Counted from the first letter of the stretch, positions 4,657 to 25,285 are shown. The stretch: 64,000 bases of DNA from Patescibacteria group bacterium (GCA_041650915.1 JBAZKE010000003.1:21226-85225), one strand, 5' to 3'. The notes: generated by a model not told the origin, from the letters alone. Translations and numbers: made by a program.

Positions 4657-7600
4657 ATGTTTCGATACCTGAAAAACAGGCTCTTCCGCGCACTCGCCGC
4701 GAAGCCCCGTACGTCGAAGGCGGTGCTGACGGCGCTCGTTGCGTTTGTGCTGCTCGGCATCAATGTTTTTGCATTTGCGACACCCGCCCAGGCGGGCTTC
4801 ATCGGCGATATTGTCGGATTGGCGCTTGACCCGATCGTCAACGTTATTGCGAGCATCATGCTGTTTATTGCGACGATACTGGGCAAGTTATTAGTCGTGC
4901 TCATCGATATTTTACTCAACATCGTCAAGTACAACGATTTTACCAATGCGCGCGCGGTGGAGATCGGGTGGGTTGTCGTCCGCGACCTGTGCAACATGTT
5001 CTTTATCGTCGTGCTGCTCATCATCGCGTTTGGCACCATCTTCCGCATCGAGAACTACAAATACAACAGGCTGCTGCCCAAGCTGATTCTCATGGCGGTG
5101 CTCATCAATTTTTCCAAGCTCATTGCGGGATTCCTCATTGATCTCGGGCAGGTCGTCATGATGACGTTTGTCAATGCGTTTGCGGACGCTGCGGCGACGA
5201 ATTTTACAAGCGCGTTCAAGCTGCAGCAGATGCTCGGATTTTTGGATAATACCGGGGGCGGAACAGGCGGCGGTCCGAGCAACTGGTCGCTCCTCGGGGG
5301 GCCGTTCCTCGCCATCATGCTGCTCATCGTCGCCCTCATGGTCATGCTCGCGATGGTGGTCGTGTTCCTCACGCGCATCATCATGCTGTGGATCTTGGTC
5401 GCCGTTTCGCCGCTCGCCTTTTTGCTCGAGGTGCTGCCTGGCGGCTCAAAGTACGCACAGCAGTGGTGGTCGAAGTTCGGGCAGTGGGTTACGACCGGCC
5501 CGATCCTTGCCTTTTTCCTGTGGCTGTCGCTCGCGGTGCTGTCAACGAGGGACATCGAGCTCGGGATTCAGGATACCGTGATCACGGAGCAGCCCAGCGG
5601 CGGCGGCGTCGTCTCGGCGGGGCTGTCGGCCGTTTCTACCTCGAAGAACATGGTCGGCTTCATGTTTTCAATCGCGATGATGCTCATATCCCTGTCCATT
5701 GCCGGCGGGCTCGGCGGTGTTGCGGGCAGCGTTGCCGGAAAAATGACAGATAAGGTCCGCGCGATGGGTTCCGCCCCATTCAGGAGCTCGAGCCTCATCG
5801 GAAAAGGCAGGAAGGCGCTGACCGGGTACGTTGGAGAAGAGCTCGGCTCGCGGCTCGGTATCGCCTCGGTGCGGGACAAGTGGAAAGAGGGGTGGCAGCG
5901 GCACCGTGAGCGGACCCGCCGCGACCGTATCAGTAAAATGAGGGCAAAGGCGGCGGAACGCGGCGGTGTACTGGGAACGCTCGCCACGCCGACCCAGTTT
6001 TTTGACCAGTACTGGGGCGCGAAGGGCATCAAGCGCGCGTTCCAAGAGGGGATCGGAGGCAAGAAGTCGAGGGAAGCTGACAATAGGATGAAAACGGCAA
6101 AGGAAAAGTATGAGGCAACAAAGGAAGAGGCTGATACGCTCGATACGGTTGCAAATGGGCCTACCATGCACGAGTACCGGGGGTATATGGACAATAAGCG
6201 GGCGCTCACGCGGAAGTTCGATACGGCACGGCAAATGGGGTCAACTCTTGAGGTAAGCGACGATGCGGATAATCCGGACGGCATTGCTGATATTCTCGCT
6301 GCAGCGGGGAATAAAAAGAAGGAACTCGAAGGCCTGGCCGCCATTGAAGCGCGTAAAATAAAGGAAGCCAATGACGAGAAGAAAGAAATCGGCGCACTGT
6401 CGCCTGAGAGAACGGCAAAGCTGGATGAGGACATCAAAACGTATGTAGCGGACTATGAAAAGTATAAGAAAGAAGCAGCGGAAATAGAAGTTGCACTCAC
6501 TGAAGGTAAAAGGACGCGTACGATCAAGCTCAAACCAGAGTGGGAATTTACGGCTGAGTCGCGTAAAGAGCTCGATGCCACGATCGGGAAGATGGAGGCG
6601 TACTATAAGGAGGGCAAGCTCGCAAAAAGCAAGGCAGGCCGGGATGAGCTGCAGACTGCACTCGCTGCAATCCGGGCAAGAGAGGAAGTGGAGAAGCGGA
6701 ATTTTTTTACTGCGCGCCAGGAAGCTGACAGAATTCGGCCTGCATTCAACTTTGAAATGCTCCGTGAGCAGGCGCTTGATATCGCAAAAGAAAAGTCAGA
6801 AATGCTCACGGACAGCTGGCAAGAGCTCTGGGAGATACACCAGGACGCTGAGCGGCGCGGCGATTCTACGCGGGCAGCTGCTGCATACCTCAAAGCAACG
6901 GAGTATGCAAATGACAATGAGATACAAAATATGGCCGGTGACGGGAGCGGAGCCGAGGGGTTGAAATCGTTCATCATGAACCGGTACGTAGGCAAGAAAG
7001 GCTTTAAACACAATCAGGCTGCGATTGACGCATGGGAAACAGAAAACCCCGGAACCAAGATTGAAGAAGAAGGGATGGGCTTGTCGGAAGCTCAGGCACT
7101 CAACATTGCCAATTTGGTGTCATATGCCGCGGAAAAAGCCGGCCACTGGATGAATGCGCGTGCCGTGGGAGTTGAGAACGGCAAGCAGTTCTGGCAGAAG
7201 GAGAATGATCGCCTGATCGAGCAGATAGCTGAGATCAGGAAAATCGACCCTGAAACATTCCAGCGCCGCGTGAACCGGCTCGGGTGGGGCATTGAGCTGC
7301 CCAAAGGGGGGGAAGACCGCGCTGAACGTGCACGCAACTTCCAGCTGACCGGCGAACGGGAATTTAAAAATAGCCCGTTTGCGCTTGCCTTTTTTGAGGA
7401 CAACTGGAAGCGGTGGGAAGAGCTGCTCAGCCGGGGCCGGTTCAATGAGAGCGTCGCGCTCAGCATCACGAGCGGTGAAAACTATGATGAGCTAAAGCGG
7501 CTTGCCGCATTCCAAAAAACAACAGACGTGACGGCAAAGGGCGGCTGGAGTATGGAGAGGATGGTGGATGAGATTAAAAAATTCGGGGCCTCCCGCAGCG

Positions 7601-7770
7601 GCGATCCGTTTAGGGTTATCAGAGAAAAAACGTGGATGAAGACAGAAGGAGGAGGCAAACTCATGGAGAAAGAGTACTATACGGGCAAGCCGTCGCCGGA
7701 TCAGGAAAAAGAGTTGAAAACTTCGATTCCGGGCATCAAGAAAAAAACAAAGGAAGAAAAGCAACCATAG
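4657..7770 (+). CDS. TrbL/VirB6-like polytopic membrane protein of a T4SS-like system, with a long charged coiled-coil C-terminal extension.
   Basis: The first ATG after the upstream stop at 4595 is at 4657, in frame with ORF 4531..7770. About 7 hydrophobic helices fill the first ~400 aa. The remaining ~600 aa are K/E-rich. A VirB3/VirB4 cluster lies downstream. Confidence 0.55.
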   Translation: MFRYLKNRLFRALAAKPRTSKAVLTALVAFVLLGINVFAFATPAQAGFIGDIVGLALDPIVNVIASIMLFIATILGKLLVVLIDILLNIVKYNDFTNARAVEIGWVVVRDLCNMFFIVVLLIIAFGTIFRIENYKYNRLLPKLILMAVLINFSKLIAGFLIDLGQVVMMTFVNAFADAAATNFTSAFKLQQMLGFLDNTGGGTGGGPSNWSLLGGPFLAIMLLIVALMVMLAMVVVFLTRIIMLWILVAVSPLAFLLEVLPGGSKYAQQWWSKFGQWVTTGPILAFFLWLSLAVLSTRDIELGIQDTVITEQPSGGGVVSAGLSAVSTSKNMVGFMFSIAMMLISLSIAGGLGGVAGSVAGKMTDKVRAMGSAPFRSSSLIGKGRKALTGYVGEELGSRLGIASVRDKWKEGWQRHRERTRRDRISKMRAKAAERGGVLGTLATPTQFFDQYWGAKGIKRAFQEGIGGKKSREADNRMKTAKEKYEATKEEADTLDTVANGPTMHEYRGYMDNKRALTRKFDTARQMGSTLEVSDDADNPDGIADILAAAGNKKKELEGLAAIEARKIKEANDEKKEIGALSPERTAKLDEDIKTYVADYEKYKKEAAEIEVALTEGKRTRTIKLKPEWEFTAESRKELDATIGKMEAYYKEGKLAKSKAGRDELQTALAAIRAREEVEKRNFFTARQEADRIRPAFNFEMLREQALDIAKEKSEMLTDSWQELWEIHQDAERRGDSTRAAAAYLKATEYANDNEIQNMAGDGSGAEGLKSFIMNRYVGKKGFKHNQAAIDAWETENPGTKIEEEGMGLSEAQALNIANLVSYAAEKAGHWMNARAVGVENGKQFWQKENDRLIEQIAEIRKIDPETFQRRVNRLGWGIELPKGGEDRAERARNFQLTGEREFKNSPFALAFFEDNWKRWEELLSRGRFNESVALSITSGENYDELKRLAAFQKTTDVTAKGGWSMERMVDEIKKFGASRSGDPFRVIREKTWMKTEGGGKLMEKEYYTGKPSPDQEKELKTSIPGIKKKTKEEKQP

Positions 7771-7773
7771 CAT

Positions 7774-9723
7774 ATGGCGGATGACAAAATAAAAGAACCA
7801 GGAGTAGGAGCAGGCACGATCGACCTGCGCGATCCGCAGTGGAAAACGCAGGCTGAAGCGTACGTCCGCTGGATCGTCACGTTTGATGAGCTGCGGGACG
7901 CATACCTGTTTGGGAAGCTGCTCGCTGATTCGATGAAGGCGATCGTGAATTTTGATACCGAGCACCGGGAGCTTGCCGGTTTCTATCGCGGCAAACTCGC
8001 GCTCGTGCGCGCCGTTTCGCTCTCGATGCAGCCTGAAGACATTTTCCTCGGATTTTTCCAAGATGATATCTGCATTGCGCTTCAGCATGAGGATATCGAC
8101 CTCCTCGAAAAGATTGACGCCCGGGTCATCAATGAGATCATTCTTGAGGACCGCGATGCGCTCAAAAAAAAGGCGCATGACCGCCTCGTAAAAAACCAGC
8201 GGGAACTCACGAAGAATAAAATAACCGTCGGGGGCGAACTCGTGCCGCCGACCATTGAAAACTGGCTCCGGCACTACAATGCAGCCGCCAGCGCCGATCA
8301 GTCCGTCCGGTCGCTCAAGCAGGCAGAATACCTTGTTCGGGTGAAGGGTGAGGGGCTTATTGATGAGCACGAGCGTCTTGTCCTCCGGCGCCTCATCGAT
8401 GTGTATGAGCACCTCAAGCTGTCGTCGCTGAGCGTCGAGGGAATCGAAGAAAATTTCAGCATTAACCAGGGCGGAAAAAAGAAGATCGTCGCAGACGGGC
8501 GCGTTGAAGAGGTGCCTGTCGAGCAGCTCAAAAAGAAGCTCGAGCGTGCAATAAAAATCCAGAAGTCTGTGCAGGGCGGCAGCAAGCAGTACTCCCCCGA
8601 AGATATCACGGGAGAGCAGCGTGAGCGGTACCTCGAGTACCGGTCGGCCATTATGGAAAAAGTGGAAGACCTGCGCGCTGAAGCCGGCAACGATACCGAT
8701 AAAATCAAGGGCATATTCGCGCGGGCCTACGATATCAAAGATGCCGATGAAGTGACAGCGTGCCTGTACCACCTGGCTGCCGAGGGCGAGCTTCAGGGTG
8801 CACTCGTCGAAAACCGCAGCTGGCTCGATGGGACAAAGAAGTACGCAGAAGACAAGTTCGGCAGCGCCGATGCAGCTGAGGCCGTCAATAAAAAGCCGAC
8901 GGGCCGGGAGTCACTCTCCCTGTTCCTCCAATACGCGCTGCTCGACCGCCTGCGTTTTTCACAGAGTGAGAGTGCGTTGATTGGGATGGATGTCGGCGCG
9001 CTCATGGGCGGCCAGTACCAGGGCATGGCATACTGGGACCAGGAGAAAGGACTATTCGAGTGGACGGAACTGGAGCTCCGCGATGGAGACATCACCGCAA
9101 AGGCAGCGGCTCTAGAGGCGGCCGTGCTGGAGCCGGTAGCGCCCGCAGGATCAGTATCAAGAGAGGCTGCGGGAAGTGAGGAGAACGCGATTGATCGCCT
9201 CCGGCACAAGTATGGCGCTTTCCGCGCGCTGCGCTCCGTCGTCCTGTCAATCGAGGATGAGGTACTCGTCCGTACGAAGGGGGATCCGGAAGCGCTCAAG
9301 CGGGAACTGTCCGCGGCGGTCCGTGAAAAGAATCAAGACCGCGCCATCGCGTGCTTAAAAATTCTTGCAGCCCAGAGGACGCTTGCGGTTTCGATTAAGG
9401 ACAGCAGAGCGTGGGTGGATGCCCTGGCAGATCATCTCAGGGAAAAGTACCATGCGAAAAATTCTCCCGAAGAGATCGAGCGTGCCATCCGCGCCATGAG
9501 GATTGATTCTTCCTCGCCAGCGGTTTTATCCGAATTTCTCCAATACATCTTGATCAGCAAGCTCGGAATGCAGGCGGCTGATGCCGCACTTATTGCCTCC
9601 GATATTGGTCAGCTGATTGGGAGCGAATACCAGGCTATCGCGTACGGCAGCGAGGAGAGCGGTACGTTTGAGTGGGCAACAAATTCAATCCAAAACGGCG
9701 TGTTCGCAGCGCAGGAGGGCTAG
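7774..9723 (+). CDS. Hypothetical alpha-helical protein with an internally duplicated C-terminal domain. It is translationally coupled to the VirB6-like gene.
   Basis: Its start lies 3 nt after the upstream stop. Two ~70-aa segments are homologous: SLSLFLQYALLDRLRF...YQGMAYWDQEKGLFEW and VLSEFLQYILISKLGM...YQAIAYGSEESGTFEW. Confidence 0.6.
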   Translation: MADDKIKEPGVGAGTIDLRDPQWKTQAEAYVRWIVTFDELRDAYLFGKLLADSMKAIVNFDTEHRELAGFYRGKLALVRAVSLSMQPEDIFLGFFQDDICIALQHEDIDLLEKIDARVINEIILEDRDALKKKAHDRLVKNQRELTKNKITVGGELVPPTIENWLRHYNAAASADQSVRSLKQAEYLVRVKGEGLIDEHERLVLRRLIDVYEHLKLSSLSVEGIEENFSINQGGKKKIVADGRVEEVPVEQLKKKLERAIKIQKSVQGGSKQYSPEDITGEQRERYLEYRSAIMEKVEDLRAEAGNDTDKIKGIFARAYDIKDADEVTACLYHLAAEGELQGALVENRSWLDGTKKYAEDKFGSADAAEAVNKKPTGRESLSLFLQYALLDRLRFSQSESALIGMDVGALMGGQYQGMAYWDQEKGLFEWTELELRDGDITAKAAALEAAVLEPVAPAGSVSREAAGSEENAIDRLRHKYGAFRALRSVVLSIEDEVLVRTKGDPEALKRELSAAVREKNQDRAIACLKILAAQRTLAVSIKDSRAWVDALADHLREKYHAKNSPEEIERAIRAMRIDSSSPAVLSEFLQYILISKLGMQAADAALIASDIGQLIGSEYQAIAYGSEESGTFEWATNSIQNGVFAAQEG

Positions 9724-9772
9724 CATCCGGCCGCTGGCGGGTGAAATGCAGCCAGCATTGGTTGATGTGCAA

Positions 9773-10729
9773 TCAATTTTTTTTCAGTTCGTCGTACAGG
9801 ACGAGGATCGTCCAGAACGGCAGAAGAGAGACGTACGGTATGAATTCCGCTACGGCTCCGATCGCATACCGGCGCACTTTTTTTACCATTTTGCCGCGAA
9901 CGCCCGACCCGCGGTAGACGAGTATGACGGTGAGCGCCGATGTTATGGCGATGTTGAGCAGTGCGGCGGTTAATCCGACGTCGAAGTACTGGGTTATGAT
10001 GTCGTATGTGTCTTTTGAGAGTGTGAGGCCGATCGTGAGCATGAAGAGCGGCTGAATGAGAGTTCTTGCGATAGCGCCGACGTTCATGAGTTTTGCGGCA
10101 ACCTTTGCCGCGCTCTGGAGCTTCTTTTTTGCATTGAGAGCTTTTTGTGTAGCTGCTGCCGCTTTTTCGCCTCCGATTTTTCGTGCCGCCTTGGTGAGCT
10201 TTGAAGTATCGCCTGCCCCCGGCTCTCCTTCCTGCTGCTGAGTTTCTTCGCCCTTGCCCCGCTCGGTCATATTTTCGGGAAGCGTTTGCCCTTGCCTTCT
10301 TTCATTGTTCAGTGCACGTTTTGTTGCAGGTTCGTCTTTCGGCGAGACGCTGAGGTTTTCACGGATACGATCCCTGAGCGTTTCCCGTTTTTCCTCCGGA
10401 GCTCCGGCCGCTGCCTGCTGGGCTGCCGCTGCCAGCTCGTCGGTATCGCCGCGAATGCCTTCCCCGAGCCCGCTTTCCGGGCGGTCCGCAGCTTTTTTGC
10501 CAGTTTCTTCGTCACGGTAGGACTGCAACCCTGCTTCAAGAGCGCCGCGTACCGTGCGATTTTTCGTTTCGCCGTGTGGCACCGATTTTGATTTTGCCGC
10601 CGATCCCACCATGGCCGCAACCCCGTCCTCTGCCGGTACTGAGAGGTTCGTGCCGGCCGCCTGTGCAGCTATTTGGCCCTTGGCGAGGGCTGTGTGAATT
10701 GTATGCGGATCAGAATAAAAATTTGCCAT
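9773..10729 (-). CDS. Hypothetical membrane protein with a Lys/Glu/Ala-rich N-terminal region and C-terminal TM helices.
   Basis: ORF 9773..10768 on the minus strand. The internal Met at 10729 (MANFYS) avoids overlap with the upstream gene that stops at 10737. Hydrophobic C-terminus LIQPLFMLTIGLTL...AITSALTVILVY. Confidence 0.55.
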   Translation of the reverse strand: MANFYSDPHTIHTALAKGQIAAQAAGTNLSVPAEDGVAAMVGSAAKSKSVPHGETKNRTVRGALEAGLQSYRDEETGKKAADRPESGLGEGIRGDTDELAAAAQQAAAGAPEEKRETLRDRIRENLSVSPKDEPATKRALNNERRQGQTLPENMTERGKGEETQQQEGEPGAGDTSKLTKAARKIGGEKAAAATQKALNAKKKLQSAAKVAAKLMNVGAIARTLIQPLFMLTIGLTLSKDTYDIITQYFDVGLTAALLNIAITSALTVILVYRGSGVRGKMVKKVRRYAIGAVAEFIPYVSLLPFWTILVLYDELKKN

Positions 10730-10736
10730 AGGTTTT

Positions 10737-11081
10737 TTAGCCCATTTGCTTCGTGAATTCGTCAGCATTAATGCCGATCTCTACTACCGTTTTGTGCAGG
10801 TTATCTTCTTGGGAAGCCCGCTCGCTGAGCAGTTGCCGCTTGCGTTTGCTATTCATTTCCAGTACGATCGCATCGCTGATTTTTTTTACCGTATCGGCGG
10901 TCTGCAGTGACATTGTTTCTACGAGCTCGTCGAAAGCGCCGATACCGTCTTCGGGCCGGGCGCTTCTTTCGAGCGCACTGATAAAGGCATCCATTTTTTG
11001 GAGGACGTTCCCATCGTACTGCCCGTTAGTACTGCTGAGATATGTCTGTATTTTGTCGTTCAGTATCGTTTTTAAATCCAT
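10737..11081 (-). CDS. Small hypothetical protein (114 aa).
   Basis: Minus-strand ORF directly upstream of 9773..10729. It sits in a divergent arrangement with the promoter region 11082-11346. Confidence 0.5.
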   Translation of the reverse strand: MDLKTILNDKIQTYLSSTNGQYDGNVLQKMDAFISALERSARPEDGIGAFDELVETMSLQTADTVKKISDAIVLEMNSKRKRQLLSERASQEDNLHKTVVEIGINADEFTKQMG

Positions 11082-11234
11082 ATCAATCGCCGTGAAAATA
11101 AGAAAAGTACTGATGTGCTGAAGCGCAGAATTATTTCGGCATGCGCGGTTATAGAATGCTTTACTATTATGATTGTACCATTTTTTTCGATAAAAATCAA
11201 GTTTGGCAGTTGAAAAAAGTTTTTTTGAAATGGT

Positions 11235-11263
11235 TTGATTTTATGTTAAAATTGTGCTATAAT
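11235..11263 (+). promoter_or_regulatory. Sigma70-type promoter TTGATT-17nt-TGcTATAAT (extended -10) driving the + strand T4SS-like operon.
   Basis: -35 TTGATT at 11235-11240 and -10 TATAAT at 11258-11263, preceded by a TGn extension, with 17-nt spacing. It lies in an AT-rich 260-bp divergent intergenic region. Confidence 0.55.
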
Positions 11264-11346
11264 GAAGGCGCTTAATCATCTGCTAATATTGCGATTATTT
11301 TTATCGCTAAAGCCTAAAATAGTTTTTGGATTTTTTACAGGTATGT

Positions 11347-12789
11347 ATGAGTGACGATACAACATCGGACAACAGTTTACCTGAAGGCTTCTTGTTAAAA
11401 GACAAGGCCGGAAAGCTTAAAAAAGTCCTGGACGGGCAGCTGGTTGATTTTCAGGTAGCGCCGCGGGAGGAACAGCCCGCGCCTCAATCCAGCGTGCCCC
11501 CTGTTCCGCCGCATCCGGCATCAACCGCGAGTCTGCCCGCCGGTTTTTCCAGAGAGCCCCGTGCAGTATCGCAAACTATTCCGGCAGAACCGAAAGTTGA
11601 AAGCCGGTTGCCAAGGCCGGCGCTGGCACCGAGCGCGCCAATTTCTTCCTCAAGCAAGGCGCCTTTCCTGATCGAGCCGGAAGACGAGGAGGAGATCAAG
11701 CGGCACGTCAAAGGTTTGGAGCGGATGGCCCCTCGCGAAGAAAAGCCAGCCGGTTCATCTGCCCAGGCAATTATTGATGAGATTCAGCGCGAGTGTGGCA
11801 TCTCTTTTGCAAGCGAAGTGATGAGCACGCGTTTTAAGAAGGTAGTCGAGTCGAGGCTTCGGGAGCTGCGTACCGCCATTGAAGCCCGGGAAGTTTTGAT
11901 GAGGCCGTCCAAGGTCGGAGGCCTCGAGCTCCCTGCTGAAAAAGCTGATGCGGTCGTCAGTGCCGTTAACCAAAAAATCGGCAGGGGGCGCCCGGAGGGC
12001 GGAACCACACAGCACGATGCGATGCTCGGCATGGCTGGGCAATTGTTGGAACAGCCGCAGCAACAGGCTGAGGATCAACGCACAGTGCCGTCCTCTGCTG
12101 CTGGCACCATGGTCCAAGCACCTCCTCCATTCATTCCGCTGCCAAAGCGTGCACCCGAACCGATAGAAAAAATCGAGCCGCAGCCCGCGCCTCCATTGAG
12201 CACGGGGATGGTACAGTTCACGCCTCAGGAGCCGACTGCCACCCCTCAACCTGCGCCCGCCCAAGAGCAGCCCCGGCCGCAGAACATTCCAACGGAGGTA
12301 GCGCCGTCTCCACGGGGTGTAGATGAAGCCGTGCGTGCACCCCGCAGCGTATCTGCAGCAACAGCGAAGCTGTACCGGGAACCTTCGGACGGGATGCCCC
12401 GCAGGGTGCCGATAGCAGATGAAGATGACCGTCCTAAGCTCGTCGATATTAAGGAACTGCGCAAAGTCATCGGGCCCGTGGAAGAGCTCGGGGAGATCGA
12501 CCTCAAAGAATTCCGGCGGCTCGGAACGAACCCCGAGGAAGCTGCCGCGAAAATTGCCGAAAAAATCGATCTGCTCGAGGAAGAATCGTGGCAGCAGCGG
12601 TCTGAGGGCATCAGCGCATGGAAGCAGTCGCCGCTTTTCCTGCGGTACGTATCGCTCGGGCAGGAGAGCCTCACGGGCGGTATCACTCTCGATGAGGTGA
12701 TCCAGAAGCACGTCGCAGGCGGCGGCCTCAACCTGCAGAAAGAAGAATTTATTGCCATTAATGAGCTTAATAGTAGGCTCGGGACATAG
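11347..12789 (+). CDS. Pro/Ala-rich hypothetical protein, first gene of the T4SS-like operon.
   Basis: The ORF 11326..12789 has an in-frame ATG at 11347 (MSDDTTSD). Low-complexity PAPQ-rich centre. Its stop lies 6 nt before the PrgI-like gene. Confidence 0.6.
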   Translation: MSDDTTSDNSLPEGFLLKDKAGKLKKVLDGQLVDFQVAPREEQPAPQSSVPPVPPHPASTASLPAGFSREPRAVSQTIPAEPKVESRLPRPALAPSAPISSSSKAPFLIEPEDEEEIKRHVKGLERMAPREEKPAGSSAQAIIDEIQRECGISFASEVMSTRFKKVVESRLRELRTAIEAREVLMRPSKVGGLELPAEKADAVVSAVNQKIGRGRPEGGTTQHDAMLGMAGQLLEQPQQQAEDQRTVPSSAAGTMVQAPPPFIPLPKRAPEPIEKIEPQPAPPLSTGMVQFTPQEPTATPQPAPAQEQPRPQNIPTEVAPSPRGVDEAVRAPRSVSAATAKLYREPSDGMPRRVPIADEDDRPKLVDIKELRKVIGPVEELGEIDLKEFRRLGTNPEEAAAKIAEKIDLLEEESWQQRSEGISAWKQSPLFLRYVSLGQESLTGGITLDEVIQKHVAGGGLNLQKEEFIAINELNSRLGT

Positions 12790-12794
12790 CACGT

Positions 12795-13220
12795 ATGCAG
12801 CAGTTCGTAGTGCCACAGTTCCTCGACGTCGAGAGTAAAATTATCGGTCCGCTGACCGTGCGCCAGTTTGTGACGTTTCTCATCGGCGCCGGGATGATTT
12901 TTCTCGTCTTTAAGCTGGCGAGCTTTTGGGTCGCCGCTATTGAAGGGCTGTTGATTTTTGCGCTGACCGGCATGTTTGCTTTCTTAAAAATTAACGGTCG
13001 CCCGTTCCACTTTTTTCTGCTGAACATGATGCAGACGCTCCGGCGGCCGACACTCAAAGTATGGAATAAAGCGTATGTAGGTCAGCGCATCAAGGAAGAA
13101 AAGCCCGAGGCGTTGCCTCCCCAGGTACCAAAGAAGCGCCTCACCGTTTCCCGGCTCAATGAACTGTCGCTCGTCGTTGATACCGGCGGCGCATACCAAG
13201 AAGAAATCGATGAGGGATAA
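12795..13220 (+). CDS. PrgI/VirB3-like small membrane protein of a conjugative-type T4SS.
   Basis: The N-terminus MQQFVVPQFLDVESKIIGPLTVRQF matches the conserved PrgI-family motif F.D.E.KI.GPLT.RQF, followed by two TM helices. It lies directly upstream of VirB4. Confidence 0.65.
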   Translation: MQQFVVPQFLDVESKIIGPLTVRQFVTFLIGAGMIFLVFKLASFWVAAIEGLLIFALTGMFAFLKINGRPFHFFLLNMMQTLRRPTLKVWNKAYVGQRIKEEKPEALPPQVPKKRLTVSRLNELSLVVDTGGAYQEEIDEG

Positions 13221-13237
13221 TATTCCCTGTAGCACGT

Positions 13238-13924
13238 ATGGCTGAGAAAAAAGAAACCATCGCAAAAAAAGCGTCAGTAATCTCAACACAGCAGTACCTC
13301 GATATTCTCGAAGTACGCGACGATGCGATTATTCTCCGTGACGGCACCTTGCGCGGGATTATTCTCGTTTCCTCGATCAACTTTGCGCTCAAGTCAGAGG
13401 ATGAACAGAATGCCGTTATCAGCGGGTACGTCCAGTTTTTAAATTCACTCGACTTTCCACTCCAGATACTCATACAATCACGCAAGCTCAACATTGACGA
13501 GTATCTCGATCGCCTCAAGCTGATTGAGAAAGAGCAAACGAACGAGCTGCTGAAAACGCAAACGCGCGAGTACCGGCAGTACATCGCAGAGCTTGTCCAG
13601 CTGGCAGATATCATGACGAAACGTTTCTTTCTCGTGGTGCCGTACTCTGTCGGCTCGATCAAGTCGAAGGGTTTCCTTGCCCGTATGCGCGAGGCGCTCT
13701 CACCCTCGACGGTGATCACCATCAAGCAGAAGAAGTTTGAGAAGCACCGGACAGAGCTTTGGAAGCGCATGGAATACGTGATTGACGGGCTCAGTTCGTT
13801 CGGGCTCAACGGCAAGGCGCTCGATACGCAGGGGCTTATCGAAGTGTTCTATAATACCTACAATCCGGATACGTACGACCAGCAGGAGCTCGTTGACGTC
13901 GGTAAATTAAACCTTGAGCAGTAA
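13238..13924 (+). CDS. VirB4/TraC-family conjugal ATPase, N-terminal fragment (228 aa).
   Basis: ILRDGTLRGIILVSSINFALKSEDEQNAVISGYVQFLNSL is the typical N-terminal domain of CagE/TrbE/VirB4 proteins. It ends with TAA at 13922-13924, 2 nt before the next ATG. Confidence 0.6.
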   Translation: MAEKKETIAKKASVISTQQYLDILEVRDDAIILRDGTLRGIILVSSINFALKSEDEQNAVISGYVQFLNSLDFPLQILIQSRKLNIDEYLDRLKLIEKEQTNELLKTQTREYRQYIAELVQLADIMTKRFFLVVPYSVGSIKSKGFLARMREALSPSTVITIKQKKFEKHRTELWKRMEYVIDGLSSFGLNGKALDTQGLIEVFYNTYNPDTYDQQELVDVGKLNLEQ

Positions 13925-13926
13925 CC

Positions 13927-15807
13927 ATGGTAGAGTTATTTAGAAAAACTAAGTCGCTGCCGACTGAAACCCAGCCGCAGCTCACGAGGGAGGAGCAGGA
14001 ACAGCTCGCCCGTGAGCAGCTCGAAGAGAAGAAGACGATTCTCGAATCAGAGAAGGTATACCGCCGTGGAGTCGTAACGGTCAGGGACCTCATCGCCCCC
14101 GCCGCGATGAAGATCGAATCCCGTTTCCTCGAGCTGGGGTCGAAATTCGTCCGCACGATTTTCGTAGTCGCGTATCCGCGCTACATTCGAGTCGGCTGGT
14201 TCGCGCCGATAATCAACCTCAACGTACCGCTCGATATCTCGATGTTTTTCTATCCGGTCGGCTCAGAAATAATCTTGAAGCAACTTCGGAACAAGACCGG
14301 CGCGCTCGAGGCGCAGATACTCGCCGATGCCGAGAAGGGCGCGCCCCGCGATCCGATCCGGGAAACGGCGCTCCGTGATATTGAGAAGCTGCGCGACGAC
14401 CTGACGCAAGGCATTGAGCGGTTCTTCCAGTTTGCGCTCTATGTGACTATCTACGCTGACGACAAGGAGAGCCTCGATAAGATCAGCGAAAAGGTTGAGT
14501 CTCTATTCGGTTCGCGGCTCGTGTATACGAAGCGCGTCTTTTACCAAGCAGAGCAGGGCTTTAACTCGACGTTGCCGCTCGCGAACGATGAGCTCGGCAT
14601 CGGCTTCAATATGAGCTCTTCACCGTGCGCTTCTTCATTCCCGTTCATCTCGTCTGAGCTGACTTCGGATGACGGCATACTGTACGGCATCAACCGGCAC
14701 AACAATAGCCTGATCCTCTTCGATCGTTTTTCGCTGCAGAATGCGAACGCAGTTGTTTTTGCAACATCCGGCGCCGGCAAGAGCTACGCCGTGAAGCTCG
14801 AAATTCTCAGGAGCATGATGCTCGGCACCGACGTGATCGTCATCGATCCCGAAATGGAGTATAAGTACCTCTCGGATGCTGTCGGCGGAACCTATATAAG
14901 CATTTCGTTGAGTTCGGAGAGCAACATCAACCTTTTCGACCTTCCCCGCCCGACCAGAAAGGATGAGAAGACGAGCGATATCATACGGTCGGCGGTCATC
15001 ACCATCAAAGGCCAGCTGAGGCTTATGCTCGGCGAGTTTACGCACGAAGAGGACTCGGTCATCGACCGCGCGCTCATCGAAACGTACGCAAAAAAAGATA
15101 TTACCGCCGATGCGGACCTCGCACACGCCGAGCCGCCGCTCCTGTCGGACTTCCAGGAAGTGCTCGAGGGCATGGTAGGCGCTGAGCAGCTTGTGACGCG
15201 CCTCAAGAAGTACACCGAAGGAACGTTCGCCGGCCTTCTCAACAATCCGACCAACGTCGAGCTCTCCAACCAGCTCGTCGTATTCTCGGTGCGGGACCTC
15301 GAGGACGAGCTGAAGCCGATCGGCATCTCGCTCATCGTGTCCTACGTGTGGAATACGGTACGCTCCGAGCTTAAGAAGCGCATCATGGTCATCGATGAGG
15401 CGTGGTGGCTCATGCAGCAGGAGGAGTCCGCTAAGTTTATTTACGCGCTCGTCAAGCGGTGCCGCAAGTACTACCTCGGCGTAACGACGATCACGCAGGA
15501 CGTCAACGATTTCCTGCAATCCCCCTACGGCCAGGCGATCGTCACCAACTCGGCGATCCAGCTCCTCATGAAGCAGTCCGAAGCTGCCATTGATCTGATT
15601 GTCAAGACGTTCCTCCTCACCGAAGGGGAGAAGTACCTTTTGCTCGAGTGCGGCGTCGGCGAGGGAATATTTTTCGCCGGCTCAAAGCACGCAGCCATAA
15701 AAATTGTCGCATCGTATACCGAAGACCAGATTATCACCTCTGACCCGCGCCAGCTGCTGGAAATCGAGGCGGCAAAAAAAGAATTTAATGAGGCAGTCGA
15801 GGAGTAG
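13927..15807 (+). CDS. virB4: VirB4/TrbE/CagE-family T4SS ATPase, C-terminal ATPase part (626 aa).
   Basis: Walker A FATSGAGKSYAVK, Walker B-like MVIDEAWWLM, VirB4-typical motifs and size. It is in a different frame from the N-terminal fragment. Confidence 0.75.
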   Translation: MVELFRKTKSLPTETQPQLTREEQEQLAREQLEEKKTILESEKVYRRGVVTVRDLIAPAAMKIESRFLELGSKFVRTIFVVAYPRYIRVGWFAPIINLNVPLDISMFFYPVGSEIILKQLRNKTGALEAQILADAEKGAPRDPIRETALRDIEKLRDDLTQGIERFFQFALYVTIYADDKESLDKISEKVESLFGSRLVYTKRVFYQAEQGFNSTLPLANDELGIGFNMSSSPCASSFPFISSELTSDDGILYGINRHNNSLILFDRFSLQNANAVVFATSGAGKSYAVKLEILRSMMLGTDVIVIDPEMEYKYLSDAVGGTYISISLSSESNINLFDLPRPTRKDEKTSDIIRSAVITIKGQLRLMLGEFTHEEDSVIDRALIETYAKKDITADADLAHAEPPLLSDFQEVLEGMVGAEQLVTRLKKYTEGTFAGLLNNPTNVELSNQLVVFSVRDLEDELKPIGISLIVSYVWNTVRSELKKRIMVIDEAWWLMQQEESAKFIYALVKRCRKYYLGVTTITQDVNDFLQSPYGQAIVTNSAIQLLMKQSEAAIDLIVKTFLLTEGEKYLLLECGVGEGIFFAGSKHAAIKIVASYTEDQIITSDPRQLLEIEAAKKEFNEAVEE

Positions 15808-15862
15808 CGGCATTTGCGCAAGGCGCCCCCGATGGCATACAATATACTAATATAACGCTCGT

Positions 15863-16468
15863 ATGGAACAGCAAAAAAAGAAGGCAATCTATATATGGGT
15901 AATGGTCGGAATCGTGGTAATTCTGATTGGCGTTGTCATGTGGATCCAATTTTTCCGCGAAGCGCCGGTTGACACAGTCCCCGCCGTTAACCAGCCGACG
16001 AATACCATTGCCGCCAATGTTACCGTCGTGAACGCAACCGAAGAGCCTGCCCCTGCCGATGAGGAGATCGACGCCGTGGAGACAGAGGAGCTGACCGTCA
16101 CGAGGCTCGCGATCCTCTTCGCGGAGCGGTTCGGAAGCTACTCGACCGACGCTGCGTATGAGAATATATCCAACCTTAAGGGGTACATGACGGCGTCGAT
16201 GCAAAATTGGGCTGACCAGTACGTCGCCGACCAGCGCGAGCTGGAAGCGGATTCGTATTTCGCGATCGTGACAAAAGCGCGGTCGACGAAGGTGGTTTCC
16301 CTCAGTGACGATGCGGCTTCCGTCGCAGTGACGGCGCAGCGTACTCCAGATGAGCTGAGCGGGCTGAACAGCCCGTTCATCCAGACGATAGTTATTGGCC
16401 TGTCACACGACGGAGAAGCGTGGCTCGTAGAGAGCGCCGTATGGCAGGACCAGGATCTCGGAGAGTAA
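15863..16468 (+). CDS. Membrane-anchored small protein. It is a possible VirB8-like component: a single N-terminal TM plus a ~150-aa globular domain.
   Basis: TM WVMVGIVVILIGVVMWIQFF followed by a soluble domain. Position between VirB4 and the pilin-like gene. No diagnostic motif, so the function call is positional. Confidence 0.4.
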   Translation: MEQQKKKAIYIWVMVGIVVILIGVVMWIQFFREAPVDTVPAVNQPTNTIAANVTVVNATEEPAPADEEIDAVETEELTVTRLAILFAERFGSYSTDAAYENISNLKGYMTASMQNWADQYVADQRELEADSYFAIVTKARSTKVVSLSDDAASVAVTAQRTPDELSGLNSPFIQTIVIGLSHDGEAWLVESAVWQDQDLGE

Positions 16469-16506
16469 GAAAACATCCGGCATTATTTTTTATTGCATAC
16501 CGAACC

Positions 16507-17934
16507 ATGGCACGACAGAAGAACATACTACTATTCGGCGCGCTGCTGGCAGTGATGGCCTGCAGCCTCATACTCGCCTCGCTGCCGCTGCAGGCAGCCG
16601 CCCAAGAGGGCGAGGAGGCGGCTGCTGATGAGTGCGCGTTTGACTGCAATGGGGATTCTGACAGCTACGTCCGGCTCAACATCGTGATCCCCGGCGTCGC
16701 TCCGATGACGCCGTGCGGCTTTCCCGCGGTGAAGAATATGCAGTGCTTCATACGGGGGATGTACATCTACTTCGCGTGGACCGCGGGCATCCTCGCGACG
16801 GCCATGATCATGTTCGGCGGCTTCAAGTATGTCGTTTCGTTCGGCAGCCCGACGAAGGTCGCCGATGCAAAGGATACCATCATCTCAGCCATGATCGGCC
16901 TTGCGCTCCTCCTCGCGTCGTATACGATCCTGTACTTTATCAATCCGAACATCGTTAACCTCAAGGACCTTGATCTGCAGAGCATCGGCGCGCTCAAAGA
17001 GGGCGTTATCTGGTGTGAAGATATCGCGCCGGGTGGGGCACAAGAGCAGTTGCTCGATCCGCAGCTTGATCCGATGGATGCAAATAACCGTCCACGTCCC
17101 ATAGATCTCGGTGAAACGTGGGATACTTCGCAATTGAAGTGCGGGGTTGAGGGATTGATGGTATATACGGACGGCCATGAGCAGCCTTGCGTATACCAGG
17201 GAGCATATAGCGGTGCAGGTTGTCCAGACCAGAATGGATCACAGACAGTGTGTGCGCCTGATTACCTGACCGGCGAAGGGTTTAAGTGCGTGGAGCCCGA
17301 ACGGTACTGCACATTCGCGTTTGCCGGCACGTGCGAGCGGGTTGATGAGGTTTTTCAAACGCAGCCGCAATTTGGGGCGGGCTTATGCGAGGCGAGCAGG
17401 GACGGATCGGGCTGCATTTACCGTGATTCGGATGTGCTCAGTTGTGAGGAAGCGCAGCATGAGAATTACTACCAGGTGTACTGCGATACGGGGAATAACC
17501 TGCAGCGGGGCACCGGGCAGAATACGGACTGCTGGGGCATCGGAGATCCAACGGAACCCGAATACCGCAACGAGCCGGATGAGTCGAGCGTATGGAACGG
17601 CCACACGAGGAAGTGCGTCGACCGGCGGACCGGCGGGTACGACTGGGCGATCTGCTGCCTCGAGCTGTCCAATACCAGCGGGGGTATAGAGTGTCGAAAT
17701 GAGTGCAACAGCGATGAGATCATGGTCGCGAACTGCATCCTGCCGGAACATATCGAAACTCCCGTTATTGAAGACCAGGGTTTGCTCGATGCCTGGGTCA
17801 GAACCATCAGGAATGCAGAAACCGGCAGGATTATTACCGGATGCACGGATGCCCAGCTCAGCCAGAATATGGTGTGCTGCATGGAGATGGAATTTGAATA
17901 TGTAACCAAGCAGGATCCCGAACAGCCCCGATAA
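16507..17934 (+). CDS. T4SS pilin-like (TrbC/VirB2-like) protein with a signal peptide and two hydrophobic helices, fused to a ~330-aa Cys-rich C-terminal extension.
   Basis: In-frame ATG at 16507 gives a signal peptide MARQKNILLFGALLAVMACSLILASLPLQAAAQE. The helices are IYFAWTAGILATAMIMFGGFKYV and TIISAMIGLALLLASYTILYFINPN. The C-terminal extension contains more than 25 Cys. Confidence 0.5.
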   Translation: MARQKNILLFGALLAVMACSLILASLPLQAAAQEGEEAAADECAFDCNGDSDSYVRLNIVIPGVAPMTPCGFPAVKNMQCFIRGMYIYFAWTAGILATAMIMFGGFKYVVSFGSPTKVADAKDTIISAMIGLALLLASYTILYFINPNIVNLKDLDLQSIGALKEGVIWCEDIAPGGAQEQLLDPQLDPMDANNRPRPIDLGETWDTSQLKCGVEGLMVYTDGHEQPCVYQGAYSGAGCPDQNGSQTVCAPDYLTGEGFKCVEPERYCTFAFAGTCERVDEVFQTQPQFGAGLCEASRDGSGCIYRDSDVLSCEEAQHENYYQVYCDTGNNLQRGTGQNTDCWGIGDPTEPEYRNEPDESSVWNGHTRKCVDRRTGGYDWAICCLELSNTSGGIECRNECNSDEIMVANCILPEHIETPVIEDQGLLDAWVRTIRNAETGRIITGCTDAQLSQNMVCCMEMEFEYVTKQDPEQPR

Positions 17935-17957
17935 TACATTACCAATCGCATTGAGCT

Positions 17958-19223
17958 ATGAATCCTAAGCGTATACTTCTCATCGTTTTATTCGTCATCC
18001 TCGTTCTTGCTTTCGGGGCATTCATTTATTTCGTGCTCATACGGGACATCGGCAAGCCGCTCAACATCGGGAACCAGAACGTAAATGGGGCGGCCAATAC
18101 GAATTCATCCCTGCCGGTCATCAACGGCGCGGAAAACGTAAATCAGTATGTGCCGGTGAATGAGAATACGAACGTCCCAACCATCAACACAACGCCGTCC
18201 GTAAACCGCGCGCAGTTTGATCCCGTCGCCGCAGGGGGAGAAACGCAGGCTTCGGTTATTGTCAGTGACCCGTCGCAAGCTGCCGCCCCGGCGGTGGATG
18301 GCAACGGGCTGCGGTACTACGATGCCGATGAGGGCAAGTTTTATACAATTGATAAGGACGGCAATGCCGCGGCACTCTCGGAGCAGACTTTTCCCGAAGC
18401 CCGGGAAATTGAATGGTCGCCGACGAGCAACCAGGCCGTCATCGGATTCCCCGATAATACGAATATTTTATACAATTTCGATACCGGCGTTCAGGTGACG
18501 CTCCCGAAAGAATGGGAGGACATCGAATTTTCAACTACCGGCGATCAGATAGGATTTCTCAACCTGACGGATGACGAACGTGCGCGTTGGCTCGCGACAG
18601 CGAATCCGGACGGCTCTGATGCGCAGCTGCTTGAGCCGCTCGGGGATAACGCGGATGACGTCGATGTGAACTGGTCCCCTTCGGGCCAGGTCGTGGCGCT
18701 TTTCCGTGAATCGTACAACGCTGACGGGCAGGAGGCATTCCTCATCGGGCTGCACGGTGAAAATTTTAAGTCCATCATCACTGACGGACGGGGCTTTGAG
18801 GGGCTCTGGTCCCCTGACGGCAGCAGGCTCCTGTACAATGTTTTCAACGCCGATTCGCGCTACAATCCGGTACTGCACCTCGTTGATGCATCGGGCGATC
18901 TGGTCGGCGCCAATGACGTTAATTTGGAATTGCAGACGTGGGTCAGCAGGTGCGCTTTTTCGAAACTCCATACCTTTGCATATTGCGCCGTGCCCCAGTA
19001 CCTGCCGACCGGGAGCGGATTGTTTCCCGATGCCGCCGGTACGACGAACGACAGCATCTACCGCATCGATACCCGGAACGGATCAAAGACGATTATCGCC
19101 ATGCCCCGCTTTTCCGAAAACGACCAGTATACCGTTGAATCACTCTTTCTCTCAAGCGATGAAGCGACTCTGTACTACGTTGACGGTGAGCAGAGCAAGG
19201 TATTCAGCATTGCGCTGCAGTAG
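17958..19223 (+). CDS. Membrane-anchored TolB-like/PD40 beta-propeller protein.
   Basis: N-terminal TM LLIVLFVILVLAFGAFIYFVLI. Repeats EWSPTSNQAV, WSPSGQVVALF, WSPDGSRLLY. Confidence 0.6.
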   Translation: MNPKRILLIVLFVILVLAFGAFIYFVLIRDIGKPLNIGNQNVNGAANTNSSLPVINGAENVNQYVPVNENTNVPTINTTPSVNRAQFDPVAAGGETQASVIVSDPSQAAAPAVDGNGLRYYDADEGKFYTIDKDGNAAALSEQTFPEAREIEWSPTSNQAVIGFPDNTNILYNFDTGVQVTLPKEWEDIEFSTTGDQIGFLNLTDDERARWLATANPDGSDAQLLEPLGDNADDVDVNWSPSGQVVALFRESYNADGQEAFLIGLHGENFKSIITDGRGFEGLWSPDGSRLLYNVFNADSRYNPVLHLVDASGDLVGANDVNLELQTWVSRCAFSKLHTFAYCAVPQYLPTGSGLFPDAAGTTNDSIYRIDTRNGSKTIIAMPRFSENDQYTVESLFLSSDEATLYYVDGEQSKVFSIALQ

Positions 19224-19290: not shown

Positions 19291-20643
19291 ATGGCCAAGA
19301 CAGTAACAATTTTTTCATGCACAAAGTGCGGTGCGCAGTTCCCTAAGTGGCAAGGTCGGTGCACCGAATGCGGTTCGTGGGGCACCTTTAGCAAGGGGCA
19401 GCCAGCTGTCCGGCAGCGAAACGCACGCCCGACTGCAGGGCGAGCCGCTCCGGTCGAGACGCTTGCTACTATCGGTCCGGCGCAGGACGAACGGCTTGAG
19501 AGTTCGGTCCGCGAGTTTGACCGCGTACTCGGAGGCGGGATCGTCGCGGGGAGCTTGGCGCTGCTCGGGGGCGATCCGGGAATTGGCAAGTCAACGCTCA
19601 TACTCCAGGTCGGCGGCAAGCTCGCCAGCCTTGGGCGCGAGGTGCTGTACGTGTCCGGCGAGGAATCCTCGGTGCAGGTCAAGGATCGCTTCACAAGGCT
19701 CGGGCTTACGACCGACAAGCTTAAGTTTCTCGGTGAGACGGACATCGAGACGGTACGTGCGACCGTGGAACAGCACAAGCCCGCACTCGTTATTATCGAT
19801 TCGATCCAGACCGTGCATACGGCCGAGGTCGATGCAGAGGCAGGGAGCATCAGCCAGCTGAAAGCATGCACTGCCAAGCTCTCAGAGGCGGCGCGGGACC
19901 TCAATACAGCCATGATCGTGATCGGGCACGTGACGAAGAAGGGCGGCGTCGCCGGGCCCCGTACGCTCGAGCACCTCGTCGACGTGGTGCTGTACCTCGA
20001 GGGTGACCGGCACCATGCGTTCCGCGTGCTCCGTGCGGTCAAGAACCGGTTCGGCTCAACCGCGGAGGTTGGGGTGTTTGACATGCAGGCGGGAGGTCTG
20101 GCTGAGGTGCGGAACCCATCGGAAATTTTTCTCGCGGACCGCACGGCAGAGAGCCCGGGATCGGTCGTGACCGCGGTCGTCGAGGGTTCGCGCGCCTTCC
20201 TCGTTGAAGTGCAGGCGCTCGTCTCCCGTGCGAACTTTGGGTACCCGCAGCGCCGCGCGGCAGGATTCGATTTCAACCGGCTGCAGATGCTCGTCGCGGT
20301 ACTTACCAAAAAAGCCGGGCTGTACCTCGGGAACCAGGATGTGCACGTGAACGTCGCCGGCGGCTTTCGGGTCGGGGAGCCCGCTGCGGACCTCGCGGTG
20401 TGCCTCGCGATCGCGTCAGCGCTGAAAAATAAGCCCATACCAAAAACACTCGCCGTATTCGGCGAGGTAGGCTTGGGCGGCGAGCTGCGGGCTGTGGGAC
20501 AGAGCGACAAGCGCCTGGATGAGATCGTCAAGATGGGCTTCAAGGAAGCTCTGATCCCAAGGACAAAACTTTCACAGGAGCCAGGCGGATTACAGATTGT
20601 GATGCTTGATTCGCTCAGCGAGGTTATCAGAGATTTTGTGTAA
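19291..20643 (+). CDS. radA: DNA repair protein RadA/Sms.
   Basis: N-terminal Zn finger CTKCGAQFPKWQGRCTECGSW. Walker A GGDPGIGKST. KNRFG motif. C-terminal Lon-like domain. Confidence 0.9.
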   Translation: MAKTVTIFSCTKCGAQFPKWQGRCTECGSWGTFSKGQPAVRQRNARPTAGRAAPVETLATIGPAQDERLESSVREFDRVLGGGIVAGSLALLGGDPGIGKSTLILQVGGKLASLGREVLYVSGEESSVQVKDRFTRLGLTTDKLKFLGETDIETVRATVEQHKPALVIIDSIQTVHTAEVDAEAGSISQLKACTAKLSEAARDLNTAMIVIGHVTKKGGVAGPRTLEHLVDVVLYLEGDRHHAFRVLRAVKNRFGSTAEVGVFDMQAGGLAEVRNPSEIFLADRTAESPGSVVTAVVEGSRAFLVEVQALVSRANFGYPQRRAAGFDFNRLQMLVAVLTKKAGLYLGNQDVHVNVAGGFRVGEPAADLAVCLAIASALKNKPIPKTLAVFGEVGLGGELRAVGQSDKRLDEIVKMGFKEALIPRTKLSQEPGGLQIVMLDSLSEVIRDFV

Positions 20644-24022: not shown

Positions 24023-24094
24023 TGCCCTCGGCAGGAATCGAACCTGCATTTCAGGCTCCGCAAGCTTGCGTCCTATCCGTTGAACGACGAGGGC
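24023..24094 (-). tRNA. tRNA of 72 nt with no encoded CCA. The anticodon loop reads UUGCGGA, so the tentative call is tRNA-Arg(GCG) with G37.
   Basis: Acceptor stem GCCCTCG/CGAGGGC, D-arm GTTC/GGAC with a GG loop, T-arm GCAGG-TTCGATT-CCTGC, discriminator A. The anticodon stem has one A.C mismatch. Confidence 0.6.
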
Positions 24095-24837: not shown

Positions 24838-25285
24838 CGCTCCTTCGTTCACGTTGTTCACTTCGGAGGCGGAGGGATTCCGCTCCGCGCCGGGGCTCGC
24901 GGCTACTCCATTGCATTCCGCAGCATCGCTCGCCCTTCTCATCCCTACGCTCCACACGCAGGTGTGGAGCTCCGCTCCTTCGTTCACGTTGTTCACTTCG
25001 GAGGCGGAGGGATTCCGCTCCGCGCCTGGGCTCGCGGCTACTCCATTGCATTCCGCAGCATCGCTCGCCCTTCTCATCCCTACGCTCCACACGCAGGTGT
25101 GGAGCTCCGCTCCTTCGTTCACGTTGTTCACTTCGGAGGCGGAGGGATTCCGCTCCGCGCCTGGGCTCGTGGCTACTCCATTGCATTCCGCAGCATCGCT
25201 CGCCCTTCTCATCCCTACGCTCCACACGCAGGTGTGGAGCTCCGCTCCTTCGTTCACGTTGTTCACTTCGGAGGCGGAGGGATTC
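24838..25285. repeat. Tandem direct repeat of 3.3 units of 135 bp in the tRNA-Ser(TGA) trailer. Each unit begins with a copy of the last 16 nt of the tRNA.
   Basis: Units 24838-24972, 24973-25107 and 25108-25242 differ by 1-2 SNPs. A partial unit 25243-25285 overlaps the genuine tRNA 3' end. The shared motif is cttcGGAGGCGGAGGGATTC. Confidence 0.85.

Follow-up and report, generated by a model that had tools for sequence, protein, structure and literature searches.

A chromosomal, conjugation-derived type IV secretion system locus of the Patescibacteria kind with a Kerfeldbacteria-like gene arrangement

Is a compact type IV secretion system (T4SS) locus with neither a relaxase nor a coupling protein beside it a conjugative element, the relic of one, or a resident machine of the chromosome, and what would such a machine move? 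We address these questions for positions 4,657 to 19,223 of a stretch of 64,000 nucleotides (hereafter, the window) from a Patescibacteria group bacterium (GCA_041650915.1, JBAZKE010000003.1:21226-85225), which an earlier note, made from the sequence without database searches, had described as a conjugation-type T4SS-like locus with a Gram-positive-like component set in a genome resembling the candidate phyla radiation (CPR). The locus is a chromosomal, conjugation-derived T4SS of the kind already described for CPR/Patescibacteria, in a Kerfeldbacteria-like (ABY1) arrangement. It shows all the testable defining features of the Patescibacteria T4SS family, and nothing essential differs. We consider it highly likely that the locus is vertically inherited on the chromosome, is of MPF-FATA descent, and is no longer a conjugative element. 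Our analysis confirms what the earlier note observed, with small corrections, and supports its interpretation as correct but already present in the literature (PMC12102498, PMC10633639, PMC12857230).

The window is a 64-kb part of a metagenomic contig of 273,377 bp (ENA ERZ27247363, k141_1347418), with window position 1 at about record position 19,721. Open reading frames (ORFs) of the window were scanned with hmmscan against Pfam and NCBIfam, using gathering scores or curated cut-offs. Loci from 80 related genomes were fetched via VirB4 matches and compared by tblastn and ORF synteny; together with the source record itself, they make up a set of 81. Where lineage names were given among the 80 loci, these were, a few evident mislabellings aside, mostly Kerfeld-, Falkow-, Magasanik-, and Uhrbacteria, and we take these four lineages together to be the GTDB class ABY1.

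The Gram-positive-like character of the component set is supported by the VirB4 ATPase and two smaller subunits. VirB4 scored 351.5 bits against NF045971, the NCBIfam model of CD1110 VirB4 (cut-off, 325), over model positions 153 to 730 and also matched P-loop_TraG (E value, 3.2e-27). PrgI/VirB3, present in 77 of the 81 loci, passed the gathering score of PF12666 (33 bits against 27), and the pilin passed that of PF18895 (31.5 bits against 26.6). Of the further profiles that had been proposed as a check, PF03135 (CagE_TrbE_VirB) matched VirB4 weakly, at 17.3 bits and under its gathering score of 21, and TrbL was reached only through homologues and the source record. The Walker A (GAGKS) and Walker B (VIDEAW) motifs of VirB4 are intact as read from the translation. 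The protein is 70 to 90% identical to its homologues in the 80 related genomes, an identity unusually high for the family. Its best 120 and best 80 matches were almost all labelled Patescibacteria or CPR, a few record titles being evidently mislabelled, which agrees with the attribution to a CPR-like genome. These results fit a survey of 3,035 Patescibacteria genomes (Quinonero-Coronel et al. 2025, PMC12102498), in which the Patescibacteria VirB4 clade is monophyletic and nested in MPF-FATA and in which TrsD, PrgI/VirB3, VirB6, and VirB2-like pilins lie near virB4.

The earlier note had described VirB4 as split. A separate ORF of 228 amino acids lies directly ahead of the 626-amino-acid ATPase, the two being joined as TAA-CC-ATG. 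This shorter ORF matched TrsD (NF041427; E value, 1.3e-6), carries a precomputed TraC-like match (PF26593) in the source record, and aligns to positions 20 to 140 of the CD1110 VirB4 model; the TrsD-like protein is equivalent to the detached extreme N-terminal part of VirB4. It could be argued that a VirB4 in two ORFs, in a locus where VirB1, VirD4, and a relaxase were not found, marks a decaying remnant, in other words a pseudogenised relic of a T4SS. However, TrsD and VirB4 are separate ORFs in all 79 of the 79 loci compared, with varied junctions and spacing and in all three relative frames; the split is therefore the native TrsD-plus-VirB4 arrangement and no pseudogene. The intact Walker motifs and the very strong conservation of VirB4 argue in the same direction, as do published data, in which TrsD outnumbers every other T4SS component in the phylum and has an essential homologue in Saccharibacteria (PMC12102498). 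No frameshifts or stops were seen in the core genes, and the pseudogene reading, refuted by this conservation, is extremely improbable.

The same core genes could instead belong to an ordinary conjugative element, such as the remnant of a plasmid or of an integrative and conjugative element, with its relaxase and VirD4 outside the window. VirB4 does fall in the CD1110/MPF-FATA conjugation family. The genes trsC, trsD, and trsE follow one another on pGO1, an order that VirB3-TrsD-VirB4 mirrors in the window. The homology of TrsC and TrsD is also stated in the literature (PMC12102498). What stands against such an element is the surrounding DNA. No relaxase, VirD4, VirB9, VirB10, VirB11, or secretin was found among the scanned ORFs of at least 300 amino acids taken as coding in the window (antisense-shadow ORFs of longer genes left out), as had been claimed, and none was found in about 5 kb upstream of it either. 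Over the span from -5.3 kb to +64 kb of the window there was likewise no integrase, relaxase, or type IV coupling protein (T4CP), att sites not having been explicitly searched for, and the locus neighbourhood held no VirB1-like hydrolase. The upstream flank consists of ksgA and a small acidic protein ahead of the gene for a giant dockerin-bearing protein, and the downstream flank consists of radA, recG, tRNAs, comF, and clpC. Gene order and the high VirB4 identity are kept class-wide; in the survey, nearest VirB4 neighbours belong to the same class in 99% of cases, and relaxases occur in 103 of the 3,035 genomes (PMC12102498). The flanks, the synteny, and the relaxase- and T4CP-free scans largely refute the conjugative reading, which we regard as very improbable.

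Comparison across the 80 related Patescibacteria loci recovered the same gene order. A large Cys-rich protein is followed by TrbL, one to three soluble proteins of unknown function, the Pro-rich protein, PrgI, TrsD, VirB4, and the VirB8-like protein, and the portion from the Pro-rich to the VirB8-like gene is kept in 67 to 79 of the 81 loci. In about 52 loci, the VirB8-like gene is followed on its own strand by comF, and beyond comF lie a gene for a protein with two transmembrane (TM) segments, recG, radA in convergent orientation, and the pilins together with the propeller. In 46 of these loci (within L027-L081 of our set; e.g., L046:11840-13230), the VirB8-like gene and comF are separated by a median of 3 bp. 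The window and about 25 Kerfeldbacteria-like loci carry the same block with one inversion, which comprises comF, the 2-TM protein, recG, radA, the pilins, and the propeller. Their order runs from the VirB8-like gene through pilin, propeller, a second pilin in some cases, and radA to a minus-strand group of recG, the 2-TM protein, and comF, with all genes still in one block. Relative to most ABY1 loci, then, a single inversion has moved comF away from virB8. In 18 related loci (19 tblastn matches including the source record), the 2-TM protein keeps its place between comF and recG. ComF(C) itself matched TIGR00201 (E value, 1.6e-30) and GntX (E value, 5.8e-33), both under the curated cut-offs. 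The neighbourhood agrees with the survey, in which ABY1 loci commonly adjoin comF, recG, and radA (PMC12102498). From position 11347 onward, the gaps within the plus-strand gene string of the window measure 2 to 67 bp.

The VirB8-like candidate was borne out by predicted structure. Searched with a family profile of 65 sequences, the PDB gave PrgL (7aed) as the best relevant sequence match, at an E value of 0.34. An AlphaFold2 model, built on a 6-sequence alignment, has a TM helix at residues 3 to 30, a disordered linker, and a domain of three helices and four strands with a predicted local distance difference test score (pLDDT) of about 85 to 90. This NTF2-like domain matches VirB8 structures best and is encoded inside the T4SS operon, and the model confirms the protein as a predicted bitopic, NTF2-like subunit of the VirB8 family. 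In the survey, VirB8 matches are found almost only in ABY1 (PMC12102498).

The pilin assignment, including its Cys-rich extension, was likewise upheld. The pilin domain (residues 61 to 160), with a signal peptide and two TM helices, is the only conserved part of the 475-amino-acid protein, and the C-terminal extension of 330 residues is hypervariable and holds most of the 27 cysteines. An exhaustive search with the pilin domain yielded 18,888 representative relatives. Among the best 150 of these, 137 are at least 300 amino acids long and 97 contain at least 3% Cys, so that long Cys-rich pilins make up a large subfamily and are no oddity of this contig. The best-matching relatives are mostly 300 to 600 amino acids long and Cys-rich (P0163-P0311), and some carry two to eight pilin domains in tandem in a single chain, i.e., fused pilin arrays. 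The second pilin seen in close relatives is missing from the window.

The 1,037-amino-acid protein at the head of the locus had been described as TrbL/VirB6-like with a 600-residue coiled-coil tail. Its TM profile shows about nine hydrophobic segments within residues 20 to 350, followed by some 600 residues of charged, hydrophilic tail. Neither the full-length protein nor its TM domain or tail matched Pfam or NCBIfam by hmmscan, and the family profile had no match among PDB sequences. The TrbL/VirB6 assignment comes from a precomputed match to PF19590 (TrbL_3) in the source record and from homologues: of 41 that are 28 to 42% identical over the TM domain, 8 match PF04610 (TrbL; best E value, 9.8e-6). 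Conservation is confined to the TM domain (residues 60 to 360); the tail is variable, and homologues range from 487 to 1,770 amino acids. The long tail thus stands, but an a/d heptad test, a crude measure and not a validated predictor, scored the tail no better than 100 shuffles, which leaves the coiled-coil label unsupported. The VirB6 module is a unit separable from the VirB4 operon: in the closest relatives (L003, L004, L007, L008, L010, and L011), the 10 kb upstream of that operon contain no TrbL gene, and in locus L082 the two units are set apart by D-Ala-D-Ala ligase-like and M19 peptidase genes.

Directly upstream of the VirB6 gene lies the giant Cys-rich protein, whose dockerin had been recognised earlier. 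In the source record (L083:1192-9939) it is 2,915 amino acids long, with its gene start about 4.15 kb ahead of the window. It contains 4.2% Cys, an N-terminal hydrophobic segment (anchor), a type I dockerin (Dockerin_1; E value, 2e-10), and a weak match to CBM_4_9. Large Cys-rich ORFs of 587 to 1,427 amino acids occupy the position directly upstream of TrbL in about 20 ABY1 loci, 9 of them detectable by tblastn, which suggests a T4SS-linked class of surface proteins. The giant dockerin protein is a candidate accessory of the T4SS, as an adhesin or as cargo.

The remaining proteins of the locus fall into conserved and sporadic members. The Pro-rich protein (11.5% Pro, in line with its earlier description) has two conserved helical domains (residues 136 to 213 and 370 to 480), both confidently folded in the model, with disordered Pro-rich linkers between them. 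It opens the VirB3-TrsD-VirB4 operon in 72 of the 81 loci and has no structural or sequence relative in the PDB; it is a conserved orphan component. The protein described before as a membrane-anchored PD40 propeller does have a single N-terminal TM segment, but the PD40 call itself is weak (E value, 0.016), and the family profile retrieves only TolB from the PDB (E value, 0.15). It is 37 to 57% identical in 21 related loci, where its gene always adjoins the pilin gene, and it is probably a beta-propeller of the TolB/PD40 type, judging from these matches. The duplicated-domain protein contains two repeats of 160 amino acids that are 28% identical (E value, 1e-23), as had been noticed. It matches nothing in Pfam or NCBIfam and has homologues in eight related loci (nine tblastn matches including the source record), always downstream of TrbL. 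Of the two minus-strand proteins that had both been taken for membrane proteins, the larger has two TM-like segments near its C terminus, but the smaller has none. The larger is present in three related loci (four tblastn matches including the source record) and is probably no core part of the T4SS; the smaller was detected in no other of the compared loci. The proposed promoter (TTGATT-17-TATAAT with an extended TG, at 11235-11263) lies at a sensible place, upstream of the plus-strand operon in the AT-rich intergenic region between divergent genes; it is a consensus match only, and such matches are regionally no more numerous than in shuffles. Coordinates of all these features are collected in Table 1.

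Table 1. Features of the T4SS locus and its downstream neighbours, in window coordinates
Feature	Position	Strand	Basis
C-terminal 1,520 aa of giant Cys-rich dockerin protein	33-4595	+	Dockerin_1, E 2e-10
Extended VirB6/TrbL-like polytopic membrane protein, 1,037 aa	4657-7770	+	TrbL_3 (precomputed), homologues, TM profile
Soluble protein of unknown function, 649 aa, internal 160-aa duplication	7774-9723	+	Repeat, E 1e-23
318-aa protein with C-terminal TM hairpin	9773-10729	-	TM profile
114-aa soluble protein, no TM segment	10737-11081	-	TM profile
AT-rich divergent intergenic region, 265 bp	11082-11346		
Two overlapping sigma-70-like promoter matches	11225-11263	+	Consensus match only
Pro-rich cytoplasmic protein, 480 aa	11347-12789	+	
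VirB3/PrgI-like protein, 141 aa, two TM segments	12795-13220	+	PF12666
TrsD-like protein, 228 aa	13238-13924	+	NF041427, CD1110 model
VirB4 ATPase, 626 aa, CD1110/MPF-FATA type	13927-15807	+	NF045971
VirB8-like bitopic membrane protein, 201 aa	15863-16468	+	Predicted structure
VirB2-like T4SS pilin with Cys-rich ectodomain, 475 aa	16507-17934	+	PF18895
N-terminally anchored extracytoplasmic protein, 421 aa, probable TolB/PD40-type beta-propeller	17958-19223	+	Weak profile matches
RadA/Sms recombination helicase, end of plus-strand gene string	19291-20643	+	TIGR00416, 548.8 bits; synteny
RecG helicase	21084-23147	-	RecG_wedge, DEAD, Helicase_C, RecG_dom3_C; synteny
172-aa protein, two TM segments	24125-24643	-	Between comF and recG in related loci
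ComF(C)-family protein, zinc ribbon and PRT domain	25765-26493	-	TIGR00201, GntX

The locus thus encodes a translocon of the cytoplasmic membrane (the extended VirB6/TrbL protein, VirB3/PrgI, and the bitopic VirB8-like protein), a VirB4 motor of two polypeptides (the TrsD-like protein and the ATPase), a VirB2-like pilin with its large Cys-rich ectodomain, and an anchored, extracellular probable propeller. From this parts list, a working model of the apparatus can be proposed. VirB4 may power the building of a channel and of a short pilus or surface fibre at the site of contact with the host cell, and the channel could then move macromolecules between epibiont and host rather than the DNA of an element of its own. 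Whereas the core is conserved, the pilin ectodomain, the VirB6 tail, and the giant Cys-rich neighbour are hypervariable, a contrast in keeping with an interface for host recognition. A further possibility, compatible with DNA import, is an organelle of host recognition formed by the extended Cys-rich pilins together with the anchored propeller and the giant dockerin protein. That the system serves adhesion or signalling only is a live proposal, though one we think unlikely. A 2025 review speculates that T4SS and pilus provide a passage for signals or for uptake from the host (PMC12857230).

As for what is moved, we tentatively favour the intake and handling of nucleic acids for this class, as a possibility rather than a probability, because the T4SS, comF, radA, and recG form a conserved block and because comF follows virB8 at so short a gap in most relatives. 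More specifically, the ABY1 T4SS could be the front end of a DNA-import pathway, in which a pilus-bearing, relaxase-less system would hand nucleic acid from the host or the environment to ComFC, RadA, and RecG, as a monoderm counterpart of Helicobacter pylori ComB or the archaeal Ced system. Inferred from gene content and order, this pathway is a possible but doubtful one. The comparison with H. pylori ComB (PMC9005727, PMC13395361) is instructive on both sides. That system is also a T4SS without relaxase or T4CP, and it imports DNA by a pathway needing ComFC, a member of the same ComF family whose gene is linked to the ABY1 T4SS operon, the link here being genomic only. It differs in being diderm and in having VirB7, VirB9, and VirB10, and the scans of the window gave no homologue of VirB9 or VirB10. 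The archaeal CedB/CedA type was not matched, the CedB model scoring 39.8 bits against a cut-off of 700.

Several points weigh against a vertically inherited, nonconjugative T4SS that feeds DNA import. Southlakia epibionticum requires its T4SS but can do without comEC, comF, and dprA (Wang et al. 2023, PMC10633639), so Com-dependent DNA uptake is not what makes the T4SS essential there. Only one class shows the linkage to comF, radA, and recG (PMC12102498), and the linkage could be a positional effect. In the window itself, comF lies 6.5 kb away on the opposite strand, so that T4SS and comF do not share a transcript here. VirD4-like genes occur elsewhere in most Patescibacteria genomes: T4CP homologues were reported in 2,918 genomes, rarely near virB4 (PMC12102498). 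Our scan covered the window and 5.3 kb upstream, and because T4CP homologues lie mostly far from virB4 in other genomes, the absence of VirD4 at this locus does not show its absence from the whole genome. Only weak matches and synteny, moreover, speak for the propeller assignment and for a role of the giant dockerin protein.

The export of proteins is another possible, if somewhat unlikely, function, in which the T4SS would secrete or inject proteins that make the host bacterium permissive; candidates include the giant dockerin protein and factors exported through Sec and loaded onto the pilus. Wang et al., who found the Saccharibacteria T4SS to be essential for epibiotic growth, favoured protein export or an alternative role because a relaxase and coupling proteins are missing (PMC10633639). 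Exporters without a T4CP do exist, as in Bordetella Ptl and Brucella VirB (PMC12102498), and the large secreted Cys-rich proteins adjoining VirB6 would suit such a role. However, no effector, signal, or chaperone was identified, the giant proteins carry an N-terminal signal or anchor of their own, and the conserved partners in ABY1 are DNA-handling genes. Those partners are what draw us, tentatively, toward nucleic-acid intake as the cargo of the ABY1 systems.

Set beside known systems, the locus agrees most fully with the Patescibacteria-clade T4SS of the survey (PMC12102498), with which it shares an MPF-FATA VirB4, a separate TrsD, PrgI/VirB3, VirB6, a PF18895 pilin, the ABY1 VirB8-like protein, the absence of a nearby relaxase or T4CP, a chromosomal location, and the neighbourhood of comF, recG, and radA. 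It adds to that description the 330-residue Cys-rich pilin ectodomain, the anchored probable propeller downstream, the orphan Pro-rich opener, and the giant dockerin protein before VirB6. In a keyword search of the survey and in the sections consulted, we found no mention of Cys-rich extended pilins, a membrane-anchored propeller, the orphan Pro-rich protein, giant Cys-rich neighbours, the 3-bp gap between virB8 and comF, or the inversion. The T4SS of S. epibionticum ML1 (SEML1_0006-0019; PMC10633639) shares the Gram-positive-like subunits, the pilins (essential there), the chromosomal location, and the lack of a recognisable relaxase or coupling protein in the cluster. In contrast, it belongs to the class Saccharimonadia, its six short pilins form an array, and peptidase/lysozyme genes lie downstream of virB4, whereas the locus studied here has a clear VirB8 fold in its predicted structure, a single long pilin, and no hydrolase. 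For the Southlakia VirB8, the survey, citing Wang et al., gives no structural homologue (PMC12102498), but a VirB8-like protein is listed by the 2025 review (PMC12857230). Experimental essentiality is on record for Southlakia only. The monoderm conjugative systems of pGO1/pSK41 (trs) and pCF10 (prg) have a relaxase, T4CP, VirB1 hydrolase, and surface adhesin, are mobile, and lack VirB2 pilins; none of this applies here.

Beyond comF, the window continues with genes that touch the T4SS less directly. A ClpC/ClpB-type AAA+ chaperone (26544-29045), an M48 peptidase (30925-31830), and LemA (31908-32462), all on the minus strand, are housekeeping neighbours and confirm the chromosomal context. Rfam and tRNA scans found just three tRNAs, none of them within the T4SS locus: tRNA-Arg(GCG) at 24023-24094, tRNA-Ser(TGA) at 25268-25356, and tRNA-Ser(GCT) at 25626-25716, all on the minus strand between recG and comF. 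A polytopic membrane protein of 500 amino acids (29154-30656, minus strand) has an odd architecture, with about 8 to 11 hydrophobic segments and a GspG/pseudopilin-like N-terminal motif placed at residues 367 to 427. The plus-strand region at 33191-62811 contains giant ORFs of 1,048, 1,439, 742, and 4,951 amino acids with BNR/sortilin-like matches, followed by PilM, a 728-amino-acid protein of unknown function, a PilO-like protein, and an fn3 protein; it looks like a type IV pilus assembly cluster beside giant surface proteins.

The Patescibacteria T4SS is near-universal in its phylum and essential in one cultivated model, and this locus with its 80 relatives provides a clean parts list for the ABY1 form. 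The comparison supports, through predicted structure, the presence of a VirB8 subunit and defines conserved orphan components, namely the two-domain Pro-rich protein, the pilins with Cys-rich extensions, and the anchored propeller. It also sharpens the hypothesis that the T4SS is coupled to DNA handling dependent on ComFC, RadA, and RecG. The accessory components and the coupling to comF are the parts most worth following; if confirmed, such a coupling would account for the way in which organisms lacking nucleotide synthesis draw on their hosts.

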